Shown piece by piece: positions 3,232 to 20,808 of a stretch of 64,000 nt of DNA. The stretch's first letter is position 1; each line of letters begins with the position of its first letter. The translations under genes were made by a program, and so were the position numbers. Origin of the DNA: Escherichia phage T4. The notes below the pieces were generated by a model. The model did no database searches and was not told where the DNA came from. It worked only from the letters and a program-made list of their open reading frames with translations. The DNA is taken from sequence record OZ209023.1, one strand, 5' to 3'.

Positions 3232-3418
3232 TATCTAAAATGTTGAAGTTAAAAGATACAGCCCAGTCAGTGCAGACAGTAACCTTTTTAATACAATTAT
3301 CTTCAACCTCTAACGGTTCAAACCAGTATTCAATAATTTCTTTATGACCAATATCATCTTTTACTTCACATTTAAAATGCTGACTCATCATAACATTTTT
3401 AAATTCATCAAAAGTCAT
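3155..3418 (-). CDS. Hypothetical protein (T4 46.2 position)
   Basis: 87-aa ORF ending against the gene 46.1 start region. Confidence 0.5.
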   Translation of the reverse strand: MTFDEFKNVMMSQHFKCEVKDDIGHKEIIEYWFEPLEVEDNCIKKVTVCTDWAVSFNFNILDNDTPKSLRDMAVSCIKDAYCEVFDI

Positions 3419-4434
3419 TGTGTTGCCTCTACATATAGCTGATTTGCATATTGAATAAGTGCTTCACGGTCAGAATCAGTGATGTCTGGAATTGCATTAA
3501 TATACTCTTCCATTAATGTCTGAAGCGATTGAACTTCAACTTCTTCACTGTCATCTGACTCGACAGAGTTATCAATCTTTGACACAACTCGTAATGAATG
3601 CACAACTTTTTCTAGTTCAGATTCGAACTTCGTCAGATTTTTGTCTACTTCAGTTACTATAACACGTACTGATAGATTTGTAAAATCTTTATAGTCAATT
3701 TTTCCTTTAAATGGATAATGAATTCTACGATGCCAGGTAGTATTGTTTGGAATAAATTCCGTTCGTTCTGTTTCTGTATCAAACATCCAGAACCCACGAG
3801 GGTCATTCTCGTCACCTGCGGTTAGTGTCCATGGTGTCCCAATATATCTGACGTTTGCAGCCTCAGAAATAGTATGGAAGTGACCAGACCACACTTCTTT
3901 ATAAGTCTTAAGGAAATCGGGTTCAAGACCATGAGATTTCATTCCTTTATAAAAATAAAATCCATTCAGTTCCCAGTGACCAACACAAAAAGAAGCAGAT
4001 GAAGTTTTGATATGCTCAAGAATTTCACCAGTATTTTCTTCGCACATCCAAGGAATCAAATCAATCAAACACCCGTCAAAATCTACTGTAGTAGGCTTAT
4101 CATACACTTTAACATTAGGATATTTAGCCAAAAGCTCAGTAGAAGCATTTGGATGCATTACATTTTTATAGTGGAGATCGTGATTTCCTACAATAGTGTG
4201 TAATGTAATTCCAGCATCATCAAGCGTTTGAACTATTTCACGGGCAAACTCCATAGTTTTATGTGTGATCGCTTTTCGCACATCAAAAATATCACCGTAT
4301 TGAATCCAGGTAGTAATTCCATTTTTCTTAGAATATTCTATCGCTTGCTTAATTCCATCAATTTGAATACCGCGAATCCACTCATCATCAGCTTTAACGC
4401 CTAAATGCCAATCACCTAAATTTAAAATTTTCAT
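3415..4434 (-). CDS. 47: Recombination endonuclease subunit gp47 (SbcD/Mre11-like phosphoesterase)
   Basis: 339-aa ORF; metallophosphoesterase motifs (GDWH, GNHD); length as T4 gp47. Confidence 0.9.
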   Translation of the reverse strand: MKILNLGDWHLGVKADDEWIRGIQIDGIKQAIEYSKKNGITTWIQYGDIFDVRKAITHKTMEFAREIVQTLDDAGITLHTIVGNHDLHYKNVMHPNASTELLAKYPNVKVYDKPTTVDFDGCLIDLIPWMCEENTGEILEHIKTSSASFCVGHWELNGFYFYKGMKSHGLEPDFLKTYKEVWSGHFHTISEAANVRYIGTPWTLTAGDENDPRGFWMFDTETERTEFIPNNTTWHRRIHYPFKGKIDYKDFTNLSVRVIVTEVDKNLTKFESELEKVVHSLRVVSKIDNSVESDDSEEVEVQSLQTLMEEYINAIPDITDSDREALIQYANQLYVEATQ

Positions 4435-4571
4435 ATATCAAGAACCGTCATTGAAATGCAAAATAAAATTATTGAAATAAATCCATCTGGAGTGCTAAAG
4501 AACCCAATCCAACATGCTCTAGTGAATAGATAAAATGCAAGAAAAAGTATCACATATCCAAGAAATATCAT
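4431..4571 (-). CDS. Small hydrophobic protein (T4 47.1 position), 46 aa
   Basis: ATG at 4569-4571; translation MIFLGYVILFLAFYLFTRACWIGFFSTPDGFISIILFCISMTVLDI; its TGA stop overlaps the gene 47 ATG (ATGA); below the 60-aa track cutoff. Confidence 0.5.
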   Translation of the reverse strand: MIFLGYVILFLAFYLFTRACWIGFFSTPDGFISIILFCISMTVLDI

Positions 4572-4595
4572 TATATCAAACTCCGTATAAAGCTA

Positions 4596-4611
4596 AAGGG
4601 CCGAAGCCCTT
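4596..4611 (-). terminator. GC-rich stem-loop with UUCG tetraloop overlapping the a-gt stop codon
   Basis: aagggc-cgaa-gccctt on plus strand; only a weak U-tract follows, so this may be an RNA-stability hairpin rather than a terminator. Confidence 0.4.
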
Positions 4612-4748
4612 TATTTTGTAATAATGTCAAACTGTTCTTTAAAGCAGAAGCTTGAATCTTGATGCTGATACAAAAATTCATATGCTTTTTCTCGCTCACG
4701 GTCATAAAGAGCTCGGTCAGCTCGAGCCATAAAAATGCAAATACGCAT
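4611..4748 (-). pseudogene. a-gt: alpha-glucosyltransferase (a-gt) internal in-frame deletion remnant, 43 codons
   Basis: ATG at 4746-4748 with GAGG Shine-Dalgarno; translation MRICIFMAR-ADRALYDREREKAYEFLYQHQDSSFCFKEQFDIITK joins what I recall as the T4 a-gt N-terminus and C-terminus; the ~1.1 kb middle is absent. Confidence 0.75.
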
Positions 4749-4806
4749 AGTTTTCCTCTTTTCATTTAATAAATCATGTAAATAATATTTTATTTTCTAT
4801 AAAACG

Positions 4807-5601
4807 CTACGAATAGGCCCAAACATATCCATAAGCAATTTTGCTTTTTCCAGATATGCACTTTTTAATATTAGACATGCATCCTTTAACGGATACAGCT
4901 GCGTCTTTAATTCTAGGAAATACTCGTAATAATTTTCCAGTAGTATCATATTGAAATACTGGCACATTTCTTTTCTGAGTTATCCCACGTTTAGATTTAG
5001 ACATTTTTTGTTTAGTTGCATTAGACATCCTAGAGGGCTTTCCTATGTTATCAGAATAATAATATTTCCATTGAAATCCTCCAGCGGTTTTCCTTTTACC
5101 ATCTACACATTGTTTAATTGAAGTTGAACAGCTATATGACATATCTTCTGCAGCATCTGTAATACATCTATATTTGCGAATAAAATTTCCATTTAAATCA
5201 TATTGATAAATTGGTTTTCCAGCATTTCGTCTAGCGTTAGACATGTATTTTTTATTATCATCATCTTTCCAGAACTCTTTCATGCTTTCCGATATTGAAG
5301 AAGATACAGCTGTTTTAATCCATCCATACATTTTATTATTTAGTCTTGTTCCGTCAGAACTATAACACATCATACGAATAGCTAAAGCCAATTTAGGAAG
5401 TCTATAAATTTTAAATAATAATAAATGCGCGGTAAAATGTTCTTCTGGTGTCAAAAGAACTAAATTAGTTTTATCATCTGTACCACCCATACATCTAGGA
5501 ATTATATGATGTGTTTCAGTATAGTATGTCAAAAGACTTTTATCATTGTCTCTGTTTAGTCCTTTTTCGATCAGTAAATTATATATGTTTAAATAATTCA
5601 T
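4807..5601 (-). CDS. HNH homing endonuclease (Mob family; likely T4 mobB)
   Basis: 264-aa ORF; HNH motif HHIIPRCMGGTDDKTNLVLLTPEEHFTAH; N-terminus MNYLNIY as in the two other HNH ORFs of this window. Confidence 0.8.
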   Translation of the reverse strand: MNYLNIYNLLIEKGLNRDNDKSLLTYYTETHHIIPRCMGGTDDKTNLVLLTPEEHFTAHLLLFKIYRLPKLALAIRMMCYSSDGTRLNNKMYGWIKTAVSSSISESMKEFWKDDDNKKYMSNARRNAGKPIYQYDLNGNFIRKYRCITDAAEDMSYSCSTSIKQCVDGKRKTAGGFQWKYYYSDNIGKPSRMSNATKQKMSKSKRGITQKRNVPVFQYDTTGKLLRVFPRIKDAAVSVKGCMSNIKKCISGKSKIAYGYVWAYS

Positions 5602-5652
5602 TTTAGTTTATTTTACCAAAAAATTTATAAAGCAATATAAGAGCCGAAGCTC

Positions 5653-5844
5653 CTATCCACATAATACGCCATACAGAGGCTCGTTAGAACTTTTAAATTT
5701 TATGCGCTTATATGTTATAGTTCCTTCTGCTTTAGCTTTATCATGAGCCTCTTTAAAGCGTCTCATCATTTCCTCTCTAGAGGAACGAATTTTATTATAA
5801 TCTATTTCAGAAGTCGGATGTTCATCTTTCACAGTTGCCACCAT
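5653..5844 (-). CDS. Hypothetical protein (a-gt.x position)
   Basis: 63-aa ORF in the co-directional gene array. Confidence 0.45.
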   Translation of the reverse strand: MVATVKDEHPTSEIDYNKIRSSREEMMRRFKEAHDKAKAEGTITYKRIKFKSSNEPLYGVLCG

Positions 5845-6035
5845 TTTTTGACTTGATAAGAATCAACCCACACTTTCATATTAGGGTCTGCTCTTACAAT
5901 AGGAGGATTAACTTCTTTGATTGAACTATCACGGTATTCTTTTTCAGAAATTTTCACGCAAAGATGACCATTCAAAGATTCAGTAAATCCTGCATTAATT
6001 TTAAGACGCTTGAATTTTACGTGTGTAAGCATCAA
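5829..6035 (-). CDS. Hypothetical protein (a-gt.x position)
   Basis: 68-aa ORF. Confidence 0.45.
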   Translation of the reverse strand: MMLTHVKFKRLKINAGFTESLNGHLCVKISEKEYRDSSIKEVNPPIVRADPNMKVWVDSYQVKKWWQL

Positions 6036-6318
6036 TCATATCCTCAATCTGCGATCTAGTAGTCTTCCAAAGAATACTGATGAGTTCATCGTTATATGGC
6101 TGTTTTAGAATATCCCGACTTTTCTTGATAGCATATTCGTATTGAGCAAAATTATTATTTTCAGCTGCGATCTGAGCGTGCTTATAAAGACGATTCAGTT
6201 CGCGTTTGTTTTTAGACAATAACTTATTTGCTTTTCTTTCTGCTTCAAGACGGTTCTTTTCTTCAATAGAAGAAATAAGCTTTTCCACTTCATCATTAAT
6301 TTCGGGTTTATCAGTCAT
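6001..6318 (-). CDS. Hypothetical coiled-coil protein (a-gt.x position)
   Basis: 105-aa ORF, charged helical sequence. Confidence 0.5.
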   Translation of the reverse strand: MTDKPEINDEVEKLISSIEEKNRLEAERKANKLLSKNKRELNRLYKHAQIAAENNNFAQYEYAIKKSRDILKQPYNDELISILWKTTRSQIEDMIDAYTRKIQAS

Positions 6319-6319
6319 A

Positions 6320-6565
6320 TTATTTCTCTAATATAAAATAAAAATCATCATCTGTTAAATGATACCGATAGTTTAATTCTACACCATTAGATTTAAAAGC
6401 GGTATCATACGGATTTTCTGGATCAATATCAATGTCAAGAGCTAAAACTTCCCTGAGATACATTTTAAGTAAATAGGGAATAGCTTCAACTTCAGGTATT
6501 TCTTCCAAGAATCCGGAGAGGTTAATCGTTAGCCTCATATAAAAAATCCAAACTAGGAGAATCAT
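6320..6565 (-). CDS. Hypothetical protein (a-gt.x position); start uncertain
   Basis: 81-aa ORF overlapping the gene 55 3' end; internal ATGs at 6538 and 6463 are alternative starts. Confidence 0.4.
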
Positions 6566-7379: not shown

Positions 7380-7706
7380 TTATACCTTAGTAATTTTCAG
7401 GTCTGCAAATTTTTTCTTGCGTTGATTTTTCATGCGACGAATAGTTTTATCGGAAATTTCATGCTTTTGATAAGCTTTAGATTCTACACCAAAAGCTTTA
7501 ACATCAAATTCTGACAAGATATATTGAACCAACAATTCACGGACAGTATTGCGTCCAATCTTCTGATCATTCTGTTTCATCGTCTGATGAAGCTCTTTTT
7601 CCCATTTATCCAAAATTTGAGGAGTTACAATATCGCCTTTTTCTAGCAAAGAAACTACTTTATCATATGCGTAAGAATTGATGGCGTTTTTAATTTGAAT
7701 AGTCAT
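7380..7706 (-). CDS. Hypothetical protein (55.x position)
   Basis: 108-aa ORF, basic C-terminus. Confidence 0.55.
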   Translation of the reverse strand: MTIQIKNAINSYAYDKVVSLLEKGDIVTPQILDKWEKELHQTMKQNDQKIGRNTVRELLVQYILSEFDVKAFGVESKAYQKHEISDKTIRRMKNQRKKKFADLKITKV

Positions 7707-7736
7707 ACATTATCCTCAATTACGTTAAAATTTTAT

Positions 7737-7760
7737 TATCCAAAAAGGGCCGAAGCCCTT
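7737..7760 (-). terminator. Intrinsic terminator (aagggc-UUCG-gccctt then U-tract)
   Basis: Minus-strand hairpin followed by UUUUUGG; overlaps the stop codon of ORF 7759-7959. Confidence 0.6.
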
Positions 7761-7959
7761 AGCTAAACTTTTTGGCACCCTTCCAGCCTTCGTACATCAT
7801 TGCGACTGACAATGACAAAGCTCCTTCACATGCTGCATACTTATTATTCCAGAACCAATTTAGAAAAACTTCATCCTCAATACCGTTGTGTTTCATGTTC
7901 TGGAAAAATTTGGCGCGTTCTTCAGCAATTCGCTGCGATAATTTAGATTCAGGATTCAT
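7759..7959 (-). CDS. Hypothetical protein (55.x position)
   Basis: 66-aa ORF. Confidence 0.5.
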   Translation of the reverse strand: MNPESKLSQRIAEERAKFFQNMKHNGIEDEVFLNWFWNNKYAACEGALSLSVAMMYEGWKGAKKFS

Positions 7960-8175
7960 TTAAATTTCCCAATTGCCATTTTCATCAATAAATTTAATCC
8001 AGTCATTTACTGACCACTTGGTCGTATCGCCTTTTGGAGTAACATTTAAAGTGTATAGCCCTTGCTTAAAAAGCATGCGTTTGATATTCATATTTTCCTC
8101 AGCTGTAACGATAACACTCGTTTGATTTACGTTTAGCAACTCGTTGAGAAGTATTATAATCAAAATCATCATCAA
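7960..8175 (-). CDS. Hypothetical protein; start uncertain
   Basis: 71-aa ORF with hydrophobic N-terminus; overlaps the next ORF. Confidence 0.35.
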   Translation of the reverse strand: MMMILIIILLNELLNVNQTSVIVTAEENMNIKRMLFKQGLYTLNVTPKGDTTKWSVNDWIKFIDENGNWEI

Positions 8176-8437
8176 TGTAAACTGATTTTTTCAACTTTCT
8201 TACTTCACCGCGTAATTGACGATTTAACTCATCTTTAACTTCTGAATCAATACCTTTCATTCTACGCCATTTATCTGAGCGAAAAATGTTTTCAACCATA
8301 TCTTTATGACTTACCCCATCAGGAGCTTTACGCTTTCCGAAATAGTCATAATCACGCACTTTTAAGTCTTTACGACGATACGTTTTACCCATGGAGTTTA
8401 ATTTCCTTAGCAACTGAACTAAATACAGCACGATCAC
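8099..8437 (-). CDS. Hypothetical basic protein; start uncertain (internal Met at 8392 plausible)
   Basis: 112-aa Lys/Arg-rich ORF. Confidence 0.45.
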   Translation of the reverse strand: MIVLYLVQLLRKLNSMGKTYRRKDLKVRDYDYFGKRKAPDGVSHKDMVENIFRSDKWRRMKGIDSEVKDELNRQLRGEVRKLKKSVYIDDDFDYNTSQRVAKRKSNECYRYS

Positions 8438-14427: not shown

Positions 14428-14748
14428 TTATAGCGTAATCCATTCTCGTACTGTCTGAGTTACTACACGTTCTCGAAGCTCAACCAGTTCAACAGTAGGA
14501 ACTGCATAATACCAGTCAGAATGGTAAGAACCTGAGCGAGATTCATTTACAGCCACATGTACATTATGTTTTGGACTAAAATAAACACACTGACGATATT
14601 GGCATTTACCATCTTGCACCCAGTCTTCTATTTCGATAGGTTTAAGATAGTCGGAAAAATCGAAATCATAGTTTTCCGAAAATGCATCATGGTCTTCAAT
14701 GATTTCGCTCAGAACTGCATCAACATCTAATTTATTTTCAATATTCAT
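14428..14748 (-). CDS. Hypothetical acidic protein (49.x position)
   Basis: 106-aa ORF. Confidence 0.55.
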   Translation of the reverse strand: MNIENKLDVDAVLSEIIEDHDAFSENYDFDFSDYLKPIEIEDWVQDGKCQYRQCVYFSPKHNVHVAVNESRSGSYHSDWYYAVPTVELVELRERVVTQTVREWITL

Positions 14749-15053
14749 TTTTCACACCACCAACTGCTTACTTCAAAATCGGGTTCGCCATGTTCCCAGA
14801 ACCAGGGGCCGATAGGAATCCACTTACCTTCATCGGTGACGTCATATTCTTCGGATTTAAGCCCAACGTATCGCCATTCGACTTCATAAGCGGTACCACC
14901 GATTACAACTGTGTTCTCGCCATACGGGTTAGACACAACAAAGTCTATACCTTCTGCTTTAGCTAACCAAATCATGTATTCATAGAGTTTATATTCCAGG
15001 TCGCCTTCTGTTCCATCGCCTAGAAAAATAATTTGTTCATTTAATTCTATCAT
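14745..15053 (-). CDS. Hypothetical protein (49.x position)
   Basis: 102-aa ORF, stop/start overlap with neighbours. Confidence 0.55.
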   Translation of the reverse strand: MIELNEQIIFLGDGTEGDLEYKLYEYMIWLAKAEGIDFVVSNPYGENTVVIGGTAYEVEWRYVGLKSEEYDVTDEGKWIPIGPWFWEHGEPDFEVSSWWCEK

Positions 15054-15313
15054 TTAAAGTATTCCCGCAATTGGTCAAATCCACCAATATGACTTCCATC
15101 AGGAGCAAATACCTGAGGCATTGTTAAGCCGATTTGAGTATCACGACCTAGTTTAGTCAGAAGCTCAGCAATTTTCTCATCATCAAAAACACCTTTTTCC
15201 GGCATAATGTTGATAAATTCAAACGGCTGTTTCTTCACAGTCAAAAGACGTTTTGCATTATCGCAATACACACATTTATGAATGTTGCTATCATAACCAT
15301 ATACTTTAAACAT
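15050..15313 (-). CDS. nrdC: Thioredoxin/glutaredoxin NrdC
   Basis: 87 aa; MFKVYGYDSNIHKCVYCDNAKRLL with CVYC active site, as T4 NrdC. Confidence 0.9.
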   Translation of the reverse strand: MFKVYGYDSNIHKCVYCDNAKRLLTVKKQPFEFINIMPEKGVFDDEKIAELLTKLGRDTQIGLTMPQVFAPDGSHIGGFDQLREYFK

Positions 15314-15314
15314 A

Positions 15315-15557
15315 TTATTCCTTAATTCCTAGTACTTGTTTAAAAGTCTCGTCGTAATCAAGACTTTGGCCCGTTTGTTCTTTATGCTTGTATATAATAT
15401 CACTTACTTCTGATAGCATATTTTTATATGAACGAGTTAAAGCAGATTTAAGCACGCTGTATCTATCAGGAAATTTACCGTGTTCATTATAATAAGCTAT
15501 TGCTAATTCACGGACTGCCTTTTCAGCAGTCTCCATATATTCTTTACGCTTTGTCAT
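15315..15557 (-). CDS. Hypothetical protein (nrdC.1 position)
   Basis: 80 aa from the ATG at 15555-15557; the longer track ORF would overlap the next gene by 155 nt. Confidence 0.5.
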
Positions 15558-15858
15558 TTTCTTCTCGGTCAAATCGGTGTTTACAATGGCGACATTTATA
15601 ACGAAGATTATTAGTCTGCCAATGGACCAATTGCACCTGTTCAGTTCCACATTCAGGGCAATTAGGAACGTTTTTAGAAGCCCTTTCGCGACGTTCAACC
15701 ATGACCATTACAGAATCCCAATTAACAGGAGGGCTATAATCATCACAACCATAAATCTTTCCACGCATTTCCAGATCGTCTTCTTCACCAGCCATAATAA
15801 TTTTAATTAGACTAGAATTACTTGAAGCTGCAATGTCTTCTAATAGACGCTTTTTCAT
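15544..15858 (-). CDS. Zinc-ribbon protein (nrdC.2 position)
   Basis: 104 aa with CPECG...CRHCKHRF four-Cys motif at the C-terminus. Confidence 0.55.
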
Positions 15859-16781
15859 TTCAATACCTCAATAGCATTACGTAAACCATTTGCTTTGGCG
15901 GTTAAATCCTTAAGAACTTTAGTATGCTCTTCAATCTGTTTTTCAACTTCAATCAAACGGGTACTGAGATATTCGCGTTCTTCTTTCATAGTATCATTCC
16001 CATGATTGGGCTTTGGCGTAGGTTTAAATTTATTAGGGTCCTTTAACTTAATAACAACTTTAGTTTCAAACAGTGAAAGACCATAATTCGTATTATCATC
16101 AAAGGATTCAACTACGTCCATTTTAGACAATAACGTACGAAGATTATAAGTCAAAGAACGAATCGTTTTATTATGTTTATTAGCTTCACATGGTTTCATA
16201 TATGGAAGATTTTTATATATTTCATGCGGAGCACAAACAATAATTAACAATTCAAATGGTCCATTCTGTGATGATGGAATGAATTTAGCCGTAACCCAAT
16301 CTTTTACATTTACATTAATAGTACGATCATCGCCATGACAAAACAGTCTACGAGAATGCTTAAAAAGCATATTCACATTATTATTAAATTCGTGTGAAAA
16401 CTCACTGGCAAATTTTTCTTTACTATCTTTAGAAAACCATTCTTCTAAATAAGTTCTTTTCACGTCGTTAATAATATTAAATGTAACAACATTATCATTT
16501 GATACATTAGTCTCAATGTAGCTTGGATACATAAATTTTTTAACATTATTAACAGCTATCACAGAAGATAGTAATCGGGAACGTTTGAACCACTCGAGCA
16601 AAGAACCAAGAGAATGTGAATACGCATTTTGTGTATCTTTACAAATATGGTTTTCCCATCCAATATAGTCTAAAAAATCACGAAGAATATTATTGATTAC
16701 TTCTCTATGTCCTTTCTGATAATCACGATGTTTAGTAATAAGACTGTCAAAATAATCAATATAATGTTTACGAGTTTTCAT
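15855..16781 (-). CDS. Hypothetical protein with C-terminal coiled coil (paralog group member)
   Basis: 308 aa; C-terminal ~45-aa heptad-like segment. Confidence 0.6.
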   Translation of the reverse strand: MKTRKHYIDYFDSLITKHRDYQKGHREVINNILRDFLDYIGWENHICKDTQNAYSHSLGSLLEWFKRSRLLSSVIAVNNVKKFMYPSYIETNVSNDNVVTFNIINDVKRTYLEEWFSKDSKEKFASEFSHEFNNNVNMLFKHSRRLFCHGDDRTINVNVKDWVTAKFIPSSQNGPFELLIIVCAPHEIYKNLPYMKPCEANKHNKTIRSLTYNLRTLLSKMDVVESFDDNTNYGLSLFETKVVIKLKDPNKFKPTPKPNHGNDTMKEEREYLSTRLIEVEKQIEEHTKVLKDLTAKANGLRNAIEVLK

Positions 16782-16835
16782 GTTCTTCTCACTTGGTTAA
16801 TGATTTATACTCCGAGCCATCCTTGGCTTTAAATT

Positions 16836-17837
16836 TTACTTAATTAACTGCAAAGCTTGTTCTAGACGATCAAGACGATTAACGGATTCTTCCCAAATCT
16901 TTTTAGCCTGCTCATATTCTTTCTGCGCTTTATTAGAAATTTCTAGAACTTCTTTATAAGCTTTTTCTAGTGCAATAACTTCTGGACGAATTTCTATCGG
17001 TTCAGGTGAATCATCAAGACATTCCATTAGTTCCTCAAGGGTAGTTTCTTCTTTAGGAGTATTCACAATTTCATCACATTTTTGTTGGTAAATTTCTTTA
17101 CTAGTAGGTGAATAAGCACATTTCACTTCACGAAGGCTAATTACGAGTTTATATCCTTCCCAACCGCATATATTCTTAAAAGGATATGTATGAATATTTT
17201 CTACTGTTTCCATACAAAGTAATGCGGTCTCTAATTGACGAGTTATAGTGCTAGCAATTGAGAAAAATTTATTAATATTCTTTTGGTTAGTTTCTGGTGT
17301 AAAAAATCCATAATTCACAAAAATAGATACTTTATTTTTATCAAGTTCATATTCTTTTATGATAATCATATCAGAAGCCAAAGGATGAATTTGACGATAA
17401 TCGCCATAACATAATTTAGAAGCTGATTTTAGAATTTGCTTCTTGAAAAGTCTGAAATTACTAATCCAACGACGAGTAAAAATATTCTCAGGGTCTTCTT
17501 TATTATTGAGATGATAAGAATTAACATCACCGAACCAATTATATCCTACTACATCTTTAGTTCGTTTAATTTCTTTCCCAAAATTACCAAGAATATCCCG
17601 ATTAACCAAATATGAAAGAAGACGAGACTCTTTAAAGGTTTTCTTGATAACATCTTTATCTACACGGCTAGAAATTTTACGAATTTCATGAATAAATTTA
17701 GTAGAAGAAACAATACTTGCATCAACACTATTGAGCCACTGATTGATAATAGAAAGAACGCTATTTTGGCCAAACATCGGTATAGCTTTATCATCAATAA
17801 CGCTATTGAATGATTTGATATATTCGTTACGAGTCAT
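16836..17837 (-). CDS. Hypothetical protein with C-terminal coiled coil (paralog group member)
   Basis: 333 aa from the ATG at 17835-17837; the upstream track extension is the translated promoter. Confidence 0.6.
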   Translation of the reverse strand: MTRNEYIKSFNSVIDDKAIPMFGQNSVLSIINQWLNSVDASIVSSTKFIHEIRKISSRVDKDVIKKTFKESRLLSYLVNRDILGNFGKEIKRTKDVVGYNWFGDVNSYHLNNKEDPENIFTRRWISNFRLFKKQILKSASKLCYGDYRQIHPLASDMIIIKEYELDKNKVSIFVNYGFFTPETNQKNINKFFSIASTITRQLETALLCMETVENIHTYPFKNICGWEGYKLVISLREVKCAYSPTSKEIYQQKCDEIVNTPKEETTLEELMECLDDSPEPIEIRPEVIALEKAYKEVLEISNKAQKEYEQAKKIWEESVNRLDRLEQALQLIK

Positions 17838-17865
17838 ATTAATCTCCTCAGTAGAAAGTAAGAAC

Positions 17866-17895
17866 ATTATACCACATCCTTGTGGCAAAGTAAAC
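17866..17895 (-). promoter_or_regulatory. T4 early-type promoter
   Basis: Minus-strand GTTTACtttgccacaaggatgTGGTATAAT followed by GAGGAG and ATG. Confidence 0.6.
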
Positions 17896-18917
17896 TAGTT
17901 CAGTGCATTTAGTGCATTGTTCAGTTTAGAACGTTGCTTTGTCAGATTTTGAACCCTTGACTGAGCTTGTTCTAACGCCTTTTCAGCTTCTAGCACTTCA
18001 TTGGTCGCTTTAACTAATTCAGCATCTACTGCCTTAAGAGACTTCTCAATCGCATCCGCGTGCCATTTTTCAACAGGTTTAAGACTTGGATTTTCAACAG
18101 GAAGAAAATTCACTTTATTGAATTTCCATGCATCTTTATTACCTGAGCTATACATCCAAAATTTAGGATCGTTTGATAAGTAATTAGATAAATTTAAGTT
18201 ATCTTGCACTTCTTGCTTTTTCTCTTGTGTGACTTCGTCCTTTCTCAAAAATTCATATTTAAATGAAACGATCATATCAAGTTCATATGATGTTGTATCT
18301 AACTTAAATCGTTCAAAACGAGGTAAAATCTTAGATTGAACAGCAGCAACAACATCCATATACTTAAATGCTTCTGTCAACTGCGATTTAAGGCATTCGC
18401 AAATTGAAAGAGAATTTTTTGTATTAGGTTTAAAGCTAATTCGTGCAGTTCTATTATTTTCTTTTAACGGTCTTACTTCCATCTGAAGAGTATAACCATC
18501 AAATTTCAGATTCTTTAAGTTAATGTCAGAGCCTTTTAATCGACTAGCAGTAGACAAAATTTGCTTTAATTGTCTACGGAACAGAGCAATAAATCTCCAT
18601 TCAATACGATAATGATTTGGATTGAAAAATCCAGATGATAAATCGACCTTACTTTGACCAACGCCTTGAACAAATAGAGGATTTTTATAATCAATAGTTT
18701 TACAGAAATCGGTGAGCTGTTCACGAGCAGTCATTTGAGTAATATACCCTGCTTTACTAAAATTACGCACCCATTCACTGCTATTCGTATACTTAAAGTG
18801 ATGAATAACACGATTAACTTTATCAGGGTCTAAATTATTTTCACACAAAAATGTCATAACATCACGAGTATAGCTGGCATTACGAACCATATCTTCAATT
18901 TGAGAACGAGTTTTCAT
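17895..18917 (-). CDS. Hypothetical protein with C-terminal coiled coil (paralog group member)
   Basis: 340 aa. Confidence 0.6.
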   Translation of the reverse strand: MKTRSQIEDMVRNASYTRDVMTFLCENNLDPDKVNRVIHHFKYTNSSEWVRNFSKAGYITQMTAREQLTDFCKTIDYKNPLFVQGVGQSKVDLSSGFFNPNHYRIEWRFIALFRRQLKQILSTASRLKGSDINLKNLKFDGYTLQMEVRPLKENNRTARISFKPNTKNSLSICECLKSQLTEAFKYMDVVAAVQSKILPRFERFKLDTTSYELDMIVSFKYEFLRKDEVTQEKKQEVQDNLNLSNYLSNDPKFWMYSSGNKDAWKFNKVNFLPVENPSLKPVEKWHADAIEKSLKAVDAELVKATNEVLEAEKALEQAQSRVQNLTKQRSKLNNALNALN

Positions 18918-18925
18918 GGTGTTCC

Positions 18926-19840
18926 TTAAGATTTAAGTAAATCAACAATTTTAATTAACTTTTCACGCTCAGATTTAGCTTTACTACTCAATCCAGATAG
19001 TCTGAAAATTTCATCATCATATTGTTGAATAGAAATATTCAGCTCTTCAATTTGCTTATTAAAATAATCAATTTGTTCAGAATGTTTTTCGTTACTACGA
19101 ACTGGTACAGGTTTTGTAGGCAATTTAGTTGAACTGGATTCATTCGGGCGATAAATTAAAATGCAATTTGAACCAATCGGGCATTTAGCACCAGATGAAT
19201 ATTCTAACGTTCCAGCTTCTTTTAAAACTTCAAAAGCTAAACAGAGATGATGCCCCATATTAACATAATCAGTAGAGCGAGCTCTGATGTAATAATCATC
19301 TCCACGAGTGCTAAATTTAAAGCATTTAAGGTCTTCTGTATTATTAGTTTTAAAAATCATTTGTTTATCTAGACCTTTAGCCAATCGAGCACCTAATGCT
19401 AATAATCGTCGTTGATTTTCCCACAAATCTGCGATCATTTGGTCAAATGATAATTTCGGCATTAGCCGACCATAAAGGTCATATCCTTTATTATAATTGC
19501 GAAGGATTTCACTCGCATTAATACGAGACAACGCTCCAATTTTATTAAGGGCTTTCATAATACGATTAGATAAACTCATTCCAGACCCGTTTGTTCGCTG
19601 TAAATGTTTTTCTAATCCAAATCCAATATCAACTTTAAATTTATCTAAAATTTCAGCATGAACATCTCTGTCAATAACATTCAAATCCAAAGTTGGGTTA
19701 AATCTATGAAAAAATTTATCTGGCTCTCCACGACGTAAAACAGTCCATTCATTCATCATTTTTTTATTAACTAAAGATTTAATTACTGCGTTGACATTAT
19801 TAATTACTACTGACATATTTTCCTCACTCAATTTTACCAA
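18926..19840 (-). CDS. Hypothetical protein with C-terminal coiled coil (paralog group member)
   Basis: 304 aa. Confidence 0.6.
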   Translation of the reverse strand: MVKLSEENMSVVINNVNAVIKSLVNKKMMNEWTVLRRGEPDKFFHRFNPTLDLNVIDRDVHAEILDKFKVDIGFGLEKHLQRTNGSGMSLSNRIMKALNKIGALSRINASEILRNYNKGYDLYGRLMPKLSFDQMIADLWENQRRLLALGARLAKGLDKQMIFKTNNTEDLKCFKFSTRGDDYYIRARSTDYVNMGHHLCLAFEVLKEAGTLEYSSGAKCPIGSNCILIYRPNESSSTKLPTKPVPVRSNEKHSEQIDYFNKQIEELNISIQQYDDEIFRLSGLSSKAKSEREKLIKIVDLLKS

Positions 19841-20225
19841 TTACGCGGAATAAGATTGAACAGACTATATAAGTACCACATATAGATTGAACTAATGCCA
19901 TTCCAAAGAACCAAACAATATTATCAAACCATGTCTGTTTTACGTCGAAAGGACGTAAACTTACAGTAATATTATCACCTTTTTCTATTGAAGAATACAT
20001 CTCTGGGGAAATATATTCACTAAATCTATAACCGTCTTTGAGTTCATATACAGCAATAAACGATAAACTAGACCCCTTTCCTTGAGTTCCTGTAAGGGTA
20101 TTAACTACAGTAACATCATAATCTTTATAATGCATATAATCATTAATTGCGTAATAACCATATGCAATTACTATACATAAACAACATATCAATAAATTCA
20201 ATCTTTTAATTATCAACTGTTTCAT
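19824..20225 (-). CDS. Membrane protein (nrdC.7 position)
   Basis: 133 aa with N- and C-terminal hydrophobic segments. Confidence 0.55.
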   Translation of the reverse strand: MKQLIIKRLNLLICCLCIVIAYGYYAINDYMHYKDYDVTVVNTLTGTQGKGSSLSFIAVYELKDGYRFSEYISPEMYSSIEKGDNITVSLRPFDVKQTWFDNIVWFFGMALVQSICGTYIVCSILFRVIGKIE

Positions 20226-20280: not shown

Positions 20281-20808
20281 TTATGCGAGTACCGTATTTA
20301 ACCGTTCTTCAAACTTCCGAAGAGTGTTCTGGCGTTCAGCTCTTTGCTTTTTGTAAGTTTCAATACGCTCTGAAATGAGAGTGTATCGTTCATTTACTGA
20401 TTCTTTCATAAAATCAGGAATTTCACGAGAAGCTTTAATCTCGTCAAATTTATCAATAACAGCTTGCTCTTCAGCAATTAAGTTATCATACATCAAAATA
20501 TCTTTCTTGATGAACTCAATATCTTCTTGAGTTACACGAGATAATTTAGATGCTTTATCCTTTTTGTACTGTTCGTTAGTATCACGAGACCAGTGTAATG
20601 TACGATTTTTATTCGTATTCTTGTAAATTTCTACAATACCAATCTCATCGATAATAACGATCCAATTCCAACGGGATTTGTAAATTTGTCCTCCATTAAC
20701 AGTGATTTCACCTCCGATTGAGATGTCATTAAAGAACTTGCTTTGTGCTTCTGATTTAAATTTACCATCGTTGTAATTTACCAGGTTGAAAATATCTTTA
20801 GCGTTCAT
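20281..20808 (-). CDS. Hypothetical protein with coiled-coil C-terminus (nrdC.8 position)
   Basis: 175 aa from the ATG at 20806-20808 with GGAGG Shine-Dalgarno; track N-terminus is promoter read-through. Confidence 0.55.
   Translation of the reverse strand: MNAKDIFNLVNYNDGKFKSEAQSKFFNDISIGGEITVNGGQIYKSRWNWIVIIDEIGIVEIYKNTNKNRTLHWSRDTNEQYKKDKASKLSRVTQEDIEFIKKDILMYDNLIAEEQAVIDKFDEIKASREIPDFMKESVNERYTLISERIETYKKQRAERQNTLRKFEERLNTVLA

Follow-up and report, generated by a model that had tools for sequence, protein, structure and literature searches.

Four consecutive genes of similar size in phage T4, nrdC.3 to nrdC.6, raise the question of whether they are related by descent and what role they play for the phage. 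All four are non-essential early genes of T4. They lie on the minus strand of the 64,000-nucleotide stretch of DNA analysed here (record OZ209023.1; the window), which is T4 DNA with 100% identity to OZ209057.1, and they are named after the NC_000866.4 annotation (Table 1). The open reading frames and the similar architecture recognized in an initial sequence-only reading are real, except for the beginning of ORF4, which had been placed at a TTG at position 19840 and is most likely the ATG at 19816, since the 296-aa form of nrdC.6 is found in the 940-member cluster P0066 and in every orthologue, and since the PHROG match of the longer form begins at residue 9. The answer that appears reasonably probable is that nrdC.3-nrdC.6 are an anciently diverged array of Straboviridae paralogues that would also make up a diversified counter-defence set.

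Table 1. Features of the nrdC.3-nrdC.6 array (positions are those of the window)
Feature	Position	Strand	Protein	Remarks
ORF1 = nrdC.3 (T4p087)	15855..16781	-	308 aa	ORF and NC_000866.4 name
ORF1 conserved helical core, motif A to B	16320..16589	-	aa 65-154	
ORF1 heptad tail	15858..15983	-	aa 267-308	11/14 a/d hydrophobic; 2/2000 shuffles
ORF2 = nrdC.4 (T4p088)	16836..17837	-	333 aa	ORF and NC_000866.4 name
ORF2 conserved helical core	17391..17636	-	aa 68-149	Model helix pairs 61-69/72-84 and 119-130/132-142
ORF2 heptad tail	16839..16985	-	aa 285-333	12/14 a/d hydrophobic; 1/2000 shuffles
ORF3 = nrdC.5 (T4p089)	17895..18917	-	340 aa	ORF and NC_000866.4 name
ORF3 conserved helical core	18516..18761	-	aa 53-134	
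ORF3 heptad tail	17898..18059	-	aa 287-340	15/16 a/d hydrophobic; 0/2000 shuffles
ORF4 = nrdC.6 (T4p090)	18926..19816	-	296 aa	From ATG (most likely start)
ORF4 conserved helical core	19361..19549	-	aa 90-152	
ORF4 heptad tail	18929..19081	-	aa 246-296	12/16 a/d hydrophobic; 3/2000 shuffles
Putative sigma-70-like promoter	17866..17894	-		TTTACT, 17 nt, TATAAT, upstream TG; nrdC.5-nrdC.4 gap; consensus match only

The proposed paralogy is supported by profile-profile comparison for the pairs ORF1-ORF2 and ORF2-ORF3, and by enriched profiles, global alignment, predicted structure and Foldseek for ORF4. ORF1 and ORF2 are matched by BLASTP (24% identity over 271 aa, E 0.002), nrdC.4 orthologues are retrieved by phmmer at about 1e-8 with ORF1 as the query, and hhalign of the globular parts only gives 98.0% (E 2.4e-13) for ORF1-ORF2 and 88.6% (E 2.7e-6) for ORF2-ORF3. 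An enriched ORF1/2 profile matches ORF3 over 254 columns (94.9%, E 4.2e-8), with controls at no more than 0.2% probability (reversed) and E values of at least 0.018. Directly compared with ORF1-3, ORF4 has no significant BLASTP match and stays below 2% in plain family-family hhalign; its profile with bridging homologues reaches ORF1-3 at 95.4% (E 2e-8; controls ≤0.4%), and a global profile alignment of ORF2 and ORF4 runs end to end (87.7%, 259 columns), with a DSSP agreement of 68% versus 24-56% in shifted controls. The neighbour nrdC.8, which has a heptad tail and served as the negative control, gives less than 1%. Within the array, nrdC.3 is a recent, Tequatrovirus-specific duplicate of the nrdC.4 lineage.

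All four proteins are already held in public databases, but these keep them apart in three Pfam families (PF23882, PF26897 and PF26899) and three PHROGs (1435, 2351 and 2257) without assigned function, whereas here they are joined as one proposed superfamily. In a Pfam scan ORF3 is a full-length member of DUF7235 (PF23882; 420.6 bits, E 5.3e-126; gathering cut-off 30 bits), ORF1 scores below the cut-off (11.7 bits, tail only), and ORF2 and ORF4 have no match to this family; the precomputed annotation assigns ORF2 to PF26897 and ORF4 to PF26899. PHROG 1435 is matched end to end by both ORF1 (7.7e-101) and ORF2 (5.6e-168), ORF3 falls in phrog_2351 and ORF4 in phrog_2257. No paper naming any of these Pfam families or PHROGs was found in the literature, and while the four genes were known individually, the unified family appears to be undescribed.

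The basic-hydrophobic patch that the sequence-only reading had described as shared turned out to mix two motifs at non-equivalent positions, yet both motifs occur in all four proteins and are collinear in profile alignments with clean controls. Motif A (ORF1 aa 65-83, ORF2 68-86, ORF3 53-71 (FSKAGYITQMTAREQL), ORF4 90-108 (LNKIGALSRINASEIL)) includes the originally quoted strings FKRSRLLSS and FKESRLLSY, and motif B (ORF1 138-154 (MLFKHSRRLFCHGDDRT), ORF2 134-149 (QILKSASKLCYGDYRQ), ORF3 119-134, ORF4 137-152) includes FRRQLKQILSTASRLKG and NQRRLLALGARL. AlphaFold2 models cover ORF2 (m7bd74d42af1a; pLDDT 83.4, pTM 0.68) and ORF4 (mc479354d11eb; pLDDT 77.7, pTM 0.65), and the N-terminal folds of these two proteins do not prove unrelated. 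Both models contain, in the same order, N-terminal helices, two helix pairs, a beta-beta-alpha-beta-beta unit, a linker and a C-terminal helix; motif A, motif B and the beta-beta-alpha-beta-beta unit run collinearly in the two, and the secondary-structure boundaries agree within a few residues. What had been taken for a single globular part is, in the models, two sub-domains (a helical N-domain and the beta-beta-alpha-beta-beta domain). Foldseek matches of the ORF2 model are T4-like phage proteins of 300-370 aa, including a BFVD model of the nrdC.6 family (C4MZI0, E 8.9e-5), and the ORF2 and ORF4 searches have five intermediates in common; the TM-scores behind the ORF4 link are modest (0.40-0.46).

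The heptad-rich C-termini are equally real: each of the four has one unbroken register, and when each tail was shuffled 2000 times and the hydrophobic a/d positions in unbroken register were scored, at most 3 of the 2000 shuffles reached the observed score. The ORF2 tail is modelled by AlphaFold2 as a single 48-residue helix (285-332) and the ORF4 tail as a helical hairpin (243-272 and 277-295). By eye, heptad-like tails also close the members in phages PKO111, KMB19, fHe-Yen9-01, Merlin and Acj61. It is from the heptads themselves that we infer a probable role of the tail in oligomerisation.

The nrdC.3-nrdC.6 family is found solely in T4-like phages (Straboviridae), where nrdC.10 and nrdC enclose it in a constant slot that is also present in the Acinetobacter phage Acj61, the synteny being seen in Acj61, Merlin, PKO111, KMB19 and fHe-Yen9-01. 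The number of members detected is one each in Merlin, PKO111, KMB19 and fHe-Yen9-01, two in Acj61, three in loci L006-L014 (where nrdC.3 is missing and the nrdC.4 orthologue adjoins nrdC.2) and four in T4. The nrdC.6 family is narrow (11 representatives among 1.84 billion). Between T4 and other genera, identity is 82% for nrdC.11, 77% for nrdC.10 and 67% for nrdC.8, versus 50% for nrdC.6, 44% for nrdC.4 and about 25% for nrdC.5, so the array evolves much faster than its neighbours, a pattern that reads as the signature of an arms race; fast divergence is equally expected for any dispensable gene. Within the Tequatroviruses nrdC.3 is highly polymorphic, with alleles that fall into classes of about 60% and about 56% identity, although the genes flanking the approximately 60%-identical alleles are 97-100% identical within the genus. 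Inside each protein, conservation is concentrated in the core and the tail, and the remaining regions vary. In comparisons with other genera, no part of the family is better conserved than the core (66% identity) and tail (63%) of ORF4, whose N-terminal and beta-domain regions show 20-30%, and the tail of ORF2 retains 59% while its other regions stand at 37-48%.

A function is documented for one member. T4 nrdC.5 supplied in trans restores the plating of a deletion phage (evo 3 deletion) on cells carrying Dsr1, a sirtuin with which E. coli ECOR17 defends itself through NAD+ depletion (Srikant, Guegler and Laub, eLife 2022, PMC9391042), and the cloning primers SS-45/46 of that study map to 18896-18917 and 17895-17915, the exact ends of ORF3. 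Because this anti-Dsr1 experiment concerns ORF3, the defence evasion suggested for the array by the sequence-only reading is experimentally true for nrdC.5 and would extend to the other three copies. NrdC.5 disarms Dsr1, which makes nrdC.3, nrdC.4 and nrdC.6 good counter-defence candidates, and counter-defence is known in the neighbourhood (T6 Gp49.2 inhibits OLD). No Dsr1 inhibitor other than NrdC.5 was found in the searchable literature. In its passages on nrdC.5, PMC9391042 treats it as a single uncharacterised early gene and gives no paralogues, fold or mechanism; ORF1, ORF2 and ORF4 are remote paralogues of it, no more than about 25% identical, in which the domains probably follow one another in the same order.

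The proteins of this family would then be diversified, non-enzymatic counter-defence (host-range) proteins, each starting with a few variable N-terminal helices, followed by a core of two helix pairs (motif A and motif B) and a beta-beta-alpha-beta-beta domain, again variable, and ending in an amphipathic heptad tail of 40-55 residues that a flexible linker connects to the rest. The conserved core and coiled-coil tail would provide a common scaffold and oligomerisation, and the fast-evolving N-terminal and beta-domain surfaces would provide binding to different immune proteins of the host; for NrdC.5, the most likely action is to bind Dsr1 and hold it inactive. The nearest functional analogue for such a possible action is DSAD1 of SPbeta-like Bacillus phages, likewise a phage protein that neutralises a sirtuin NADase of defence, which is described as binding the sensor domain and blocking activation. 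DSAD1 comes from another host and phage lineage than NrdC.5 and has another target (DSR2 instead of Dsr1), and PDB sequence searches (family profiles for ORF2 and ORF4, single sequences for ORF1 and ORF3) returned neither a DSAD1 chain nor any other match. On the basis of fast divergence and allele polymorphism only, nrdC.3, nrdC.4 and nrdC.6 may each be tuned to a different target. More tentatively, and with considerable doubt, the family may be a modular counter-defence chassis in which core and tail serve oligomerisation or a common partner and hypervariable surfaces direct every paralogue or allele class to a different immune protein (e.g., other SIR2 or NADase effectors), so that copy number and alleles in the slot would contribute to host range throughout Straboviridae, in E. 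coli phages as well as in Acinetobacter phages.

Among the alternatives, it is very improbable that convergence or chance has produced a purely architectural resemblance, with nrdC.6 and perhaps nrdC.5 being unrelated proteins of similar size with a coiled-coil end. The missing direct matches of ORF4, the separation into three database families in both Pfam and PHROGs, and the modest Foldseek TM-scores (0.4-0.5, with large global rmsd) would suit this idea, but the profile signals survive removal of the tails, grow with bridging sequences and disappear in reversed and shuffled controls, and the coiled-coil-tailed nrdC.8 gives nothing. The collinear elements with matching boundaries in the ORF2 and ORF4 models speak against it as well, as does the origin of all Foldseek matches at E ≤1e-3, in both searches, from T4-like phages and mostly from proteins of similar length; for ORF1-3 it is largely refuted.

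Another alternative is that the paralogues are subunits of one hetero-oligomeric complex, held together by similar coiled coils, so that the array would have one function and not four targets. The tails of ORF1-3 keep the same heptad register when counted from the C-terminus, the tails have a final L-x-x-A-[IL]-x-x-L-[KN]-type pattern in common, they rank first or near first in conservation among the segments of nrdC.4 and nrdC.6, which suggests a conserved partner, and nrdC.6, nrdC.5 and nrdC.4 stay together in this order in 9/9 loci of other genera. Such a complex is nonetheless quite unlikely given that plasmid-borne nrdC.5 alone restores infection (PMC9391042), that copy number ranges from 1 to 4 among genera, that 60%-identical alleles of nrdC.3 replace one another without regard to the neighbouring genes, and that an nrdC.5::nrdC.3 fusion without nrdC.4 exists naturally on a 167-kb phage contig. 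It is unlikely, too, that the members of the family act early as factors of host takeover in general (e.g., modulators of host nucleic-acid or NAD metabolism) and that NrdC.5 acts on Dsr1 indirectly, for instance by masking or removing a phage-derived trigger. The early array does lie amid many nucleotide-metabolism and host-modifying genes, and no direct NrdC.5-Dsr1 interaction has been reported in the literature; however, Pfam and NCBIfam scans of the members detected no enzymatic or nucleic-acid-binding domain, nor any Pfam domain of known function, the array genes are described as dispensable on standard hosts (PMC9391042), and an orthologue identity of 25% beside neighbours at 67-82% is more in keeping with a co-evolving protein-protein interface than with a housekeeping role in takeover.

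A diversified counter-defence array would have close parallels in the T-even dmd-tifA-adfA 'anti-TA island', the internal proteins IPI-IPIII and Gp49.2 (anti-OLD), which are likewise clustered, non-essential, fast-evolving early or accessory genes in hyperplastic regions; T-even counter-defence genes are described as each countering one defence and as being lost or amplified by microhomology recombination (PMC9391042 among the sources). Those clusters have been described as functionally linked neighbours, whereas nrdC.3-nrdC.6 are true paralogues, probably with one fold, and have a common predicted coiled-coil tail. If NrdC.5 sits in a four-member array sharing a scaffold, the best-studied phage offers three immediate counter-defence candidates, the division into conserved core and tail and variable surfaces can guide mutagenesis as a domain map, specificity determinants could be sought with the naturally occurring nrdC.3 alleles, and three database families of unknown function would merge into one. 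If the other copies are inert on defence panels, the array would be a fast-drifting dispensable family of little further interest.

Many GenBank records label these ORFs as thioredoxin, a label propagated from the locus name nrdC.N; Pfam and NCBIfam place none of the four in a thioredoxin family, and none contains CxxC. The reference annotation is error-prone, with NC_000866 carrying a frameshifted nrdC.6.

The four tandem genes nrdC.3, nrdC.4, nrdC.5 and nrdC.6 (ORF1 to ORF4) constitute one diverged family, one member of which neutralizes Dsr1, the NAD+-depleting sirtuin (SIR2) defense of E. coli ECOR17. The 3,986-base region that they occupy is 100% identical to that in OZ209057.1 (Escherichia phage T4), is present in 506 phage records, nearly all of them Tequatrovirus, and carries all of its genes on the minus strand. 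The sizes and order originally given for the four ORFs agree with the window, and their names follow the NC_000866.4 annotation. Judged from sequence comparison, the ATG at 19816 should be taken as the start of ORF4 in place of the TTG at 19840, because the 296-aa form is that of the 940-member cluster P0066 and all orthologs, and because the PHROG match in the longer form starts only at residue 9. In NC_000866.4, a 1-nt deletion relative to the window (at ~19038) shifts the frame of nrdC.6 past ...NKQIEEL and yields a 275-aa product without the conserved coiled-coil tail, unlike the window's form, which is common to all orthologs; the frameshift probably reflects either an error in sequencing or a mutation in the stock.

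Coordinates of the array genes, neighboring features and counterparts in other phages
Feature	Sequence	Position	Strand	Description
gene 49.2	window	14428-14748		~1 kb downstream of array
nrdC.2	window	15544-15858	-	104-aa protein, flanks array on ORF1 side
ORF1 (nrdC.3)	window	15855-16781	-	308 aa
ORF2 (nrdC.4)	window	16836-17837	-	333 aa
ORF3 (nrdC.5)	window	17895-18917	-	340 aa
ORF4 (nrdC.6)	window	18926-19816	-	296 aa
nrdC.7	window	19824-20225	-	membrane protein, flanks array on ORF4 side
nrdC.8	window	20281-20808		175 aa
Hairpin	window	16812-16829		intergenic gap
Hairpin	window	17870-17887		intergenic gap
Promoter match	window	17866-17894		nrdC.5-nrdC.4 gap
nrdC.6, frameshifted	NC_000866.4 (L031)	7567-8394		275 aa
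Family member, nrdC.10-nrdC slot	Citrobacter phage Merlin (L016)
Family member, nrdC.10-nrdC slot	Klebsiella phage PKO111 (L017)	4145-5119 (NC_031095.1 61059-62033)		324 aa, coiled-coil tail; unannotated
Family member, nrdC.10-nrdC slot	Enterobacter phage KMB19 (L018)
Family member, nrdC.10-nrdC slot	Yersinia phage fHe-Yen9-01 (L019)
Family members, nrdC.10-nrdC slot	Acinetobacter phage Acj61 (other subfamily)			two in tandem, 304 + 330 aa
~260-aa neighbor	Merlin (L016)	14826-15614		beside or near array
~260-aa neighbor	PKO111 (L017)	3256-4074		beside or near array
~260-aa neighbor	KMB19 (L018)	5572-6345		beside or near array
~260-aa neighbor	fHe-Yen9-01 (L019)	5645-6436		beside or near array

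On sequence evidence, ORF1 and ORF2 are paralogs: each matches PHROG 1435 over its full length, they share 24% identity over 271 residues by BLASTP, a phmmer search with ORF1 retrieves nrdC.4 orthologs of other genera at ~1e-8, and hhalign joins their globular parts with a probability of 98.0% (E 2.4e-13). Direct BLASTP was rejected as a link among all pairs, as it joins just these two. ORF2 and ORF3 are very likely paralogs as well, with profiles of the globular parts alone aligning at 88.6% (E 2.7e-6, 159 columns) and a combined ORF1, ORF2 and PKO111 profile matching ORF3 at 94.9% (E 4.2e-8, 254 columns). In the three comparisons for which controls were run, reversed profiles gave a probability of 0.2% and the lowest E-value among column-shuffled profiles was 0.018; the paralogy proposed in the sequence-only reading is supported for ORF1 to ORF3. 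The single shared patch of that reading mixed strings from two conserved motifs, motif A, which includes FKRSRLLSS (ORF1) and FKESRLLSY (ORF2), and motif B, located ~65 residues further toward the C-terminus, which includes FRRQLKQILSTASRLKG (ORF3) and NQRRLLALGARL (ORF4); even so, each of the four proteins contains both motifs in collinear order.

The heptad periodicity reported for the C-termini is genuine, with no more than 3 of 2000 shuffles reaching the observed score for any of the four tails. Hydrophobic residues fill most a/d positions in one unbroken register (11/14 in ORF1, 12/14 in ORF2, 15/16 in ORF3 and 12/16 in ORF4), the register counted from the C-terminus is identical in ORF1 to ORF3, and the tails carry a similar terminal motif of the type L-x-x-A-[IL]-x-x-L-[KN]. 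AlphaFold2 models, which cover ORF2 (pLDDT 83.4, pTM 0.68) and ORF4 (pLDDT 77.7, pTM 0.65), predict a single 48-residue helix (285-332) for the ORF2 tail and a helical hairpin (243-272 and 277-295) for that of ORF4. The tail of nrdC.8 is also heptad-periodic (12/2000 shuffles reach its score).

ORF4 is the outlier. Plain family profiles gave no link to ORF1-3 (<2%). When 1.84 billion representatives were scanned in full by HMMER, the globular profile of ORF4 retrieved just 11 proteins, none of which bridges to the other families; P0227, a divergent member, clearly belongs to the nrdC.6 type. ORF4 nevertheless appears to join ORF1-3 through four lines of profile and model comparison. When enriched with the KMB19 and fHe-Yen9-01 homologs, its profile matches ORF1-3 across the core that extends from motif A to motif B at 95.4% (E 2e-8), with reversed and ten shuffled controls at no more than 0.4%. 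A global alignment of ORF2 with ORF4 extends from one end to the other (259 columns, 87.7%, E 3.8e-7), and in it the DSSP states of the two models coincide at 68% of positions versus 24-56% in shifted controls. The models also share an order of elements (N-terminal helices, two helix pairs, beta-beta-alpha-beta-beta, linker, terminal helix). In Foldseek searches of BFVD, the ORF2 model finds the nrdC.6-family model C4MZI0 at E 8.9e-5, the same entry that the ORF4 model finds at E 8.7e-22; five further matches are common to both searches (IME523, PM2, Acj9, Cronus and Acj61 E5E4A2), and all matches with E <= 1e-3 are T4-like phage proteins, mostly of 280-378 aa. Given these four lines, and given that nrdC.8, which served as negative control and was rejected as a truncated family member, stays below 1% against all profiles despite its heptad tail, the unrelated folds that would count against paralogy are not what the two modeled proteins display. 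Mere architectural convergence of ORF4 is thus very improbable. Related-locus searches that started from the bridging proteins of KMB19 and PKO111 yielded close relatives only, and therefore added little profile depth. Searches of PDB sequences found nothing apart from designed helical-repeat matches with zero significant stretches, and Pfam (every family member), NCBIfam and PADLOC scans gave weak matches only, mostly coiled-coil noise (e.g., BrxC, LmuB, Prefoldin, CENP-F and similar).

The slot between nrdC.10 and nrdC holds heptad-tailed members of the same size in several other phages, including the Acj61 pair, the lengths of which equal those of BFVD entries E5E4A2 (304) and E5E4A1 (330); no member was found downstream of nrdC.10 in Aeromonas phage AhMtk13a. 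At nine loci from other Tevenvirinae genera, nrdC.6, nrdC.5 and nrdC.4 are followed directly by nrdC.2 and nrdC.3 is absent; nrdC.3 is therefore taken to be a duplicate of the nrdC.4 lineage that is specific to Tequatrovirus. The PKO111 member, which lies where the RefSeq record leaves a 1-kb gap without annotation, is the best bridge sequence between the nrdC.4 and nrdC.5 families. The ~260-aa neighbors in four of these phages were rejected as members, forming a separate family without a coiled coil that is well conserved (49-73% identity) and has no apparent homolog in the array part of the T4 window.

Sequence change is much faster within the array than in the genes around it: T4 proteins are 82% (nrdC.11), 77% (nrdC.10) and 67% (nrdC.8) identical to those of other genera in the neighboring genes, compared with ~50% (nrdC.6), ~44% (nrdC.4) and ~25% (nrdC.5) in the array. 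Each query matched 506-653 records of the phage collection, and the identity values of nrdC.5 among them are distributed bimodally (495 records at >=80%, 86 at <60%). There are at least three nrdC.3 allele classes within Tequatrovirus (>=90%, ~60% and ~56%) between flanking genes that are 97-100% identical, and records divide by identity to the T4 allele into 139 (>=80%), 272 (60-80%) and 242 (<60%), a polymorphism that looks like cassette exchange. Within the proteins, conservation is highest in the motif A-B core and the tail (66% and 63% identical in nrdC.6) and lowest in the N-terminal helices and beta domain (20-30%). A 167-kb phage contig encodes a natural in-frame fusion (P0225) of nrdC.5 residues ~147-271 to an nrdC.3-type allele from residue ~139, with nrdC.4 deleted (equivalent to joining window ~18105-18479 to ~15855-16367) and the junction at an FNKVN/NNNVN microhomology; illegitimate recombination therefore remodels the array. 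In the nrdC.6 homolog of Shigella phage Sf25 (P0065, 378 aa), the segment from the beta domain to the linker is duplicated internally in tandem, with IRAHSTDYVNMGHH... present twice.

Experimental evidence within the array concerns one gene, nrdC.5. A T4 clone with compensatory deletions was unable to plate on ECOR17, deletion of dsr1 brought plating back, cloned dsr1 was protective in MG1655, and infection was rescued when T4 nrdC.5 was expressed in trans (Srikant, Guegler and Laub, eLife 2022, PMC9391042). Primers SS-45/46 of that study map to window 18896-18917 and 17895-17915, the exact ends of ORF3, and these together with the NC_000866.4 annotation identify the anti-Dsr1 gene as ORF3 and not ORF4. 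The defense-evasion role suggested in the sequence-only reading thus holds for one copy and is extrapolated to the other three, and our literature search found no later paper on the NrdC.5 mechanism or on nrdC.3, nrdC.4 or nrdC.6. The neighborhood is rich in counter-defense genes, since the T6 homolog of gp49.2 inhibits the OLD defense, under the pressure of which the 49.1-nrdC.1 segment was amplified (PMC13096335).

The family probably represents a set of non-enzymatic inhibitors, in which the conserved core and coiled-coil tail would supply a common scaffold and oligomeric state, and variable surfaces would recognize different host immune proteins. By analogy with DSAD1, the anti-DSR2 protein of SPbeta-like Bacillus phages, NrdC.5 would probably bind Dsr1 and hold its SIR2 NADase in an inactive state; the likeness is functional only, and sequence-level comparison found no homology between DSAD1 and the array proteins. 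An indirect function of the family in host takeover is unlikely, and it is somewhat less likely still that the paralogs form an obligate hetero-complex assembled through their tails. That the genes are annotated T4 ORFs, that nrdC.5 counters Dsr1 and that counter-defense genes cluster in accessory regions was already known. The apparent novelty lies in uniting three database families (PF26897 with PHROG 1435; DUF7235; PF26899) into one paralogous superfamily, characterized by a defined architecture, by a syntenic position that is fixed across Straboviridae and by a pattern of conserved scaffold and variable surface; this nominates nrdC.3, nrdC.4 and nrdC.6 as candidate counter-defense genes. 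The finding is a useful, testable lead and not a surprise.

In many T4-like genomes, every nrdC.N ORF, including ORF1-ORF4 and the AAA ATPase nrdC.10, is labeled 'thioredoxin', a name spread from the neighboring nrdC for which domain support is absent. The 'nucleotide reductase' label that a 2026 paper gives to nrdC.8 derives purely from the name of the locus (PMC13275509). The gap between nrdC.5 and nrdC.4 contains a strong sigma-70-like promoter match (TTTACT, 17 nt, TATAAT, with TG), and each ~55-nt intergenic gap of the array contains a short GC-containing hairpin; these elements may be internal transcription or processing signals.
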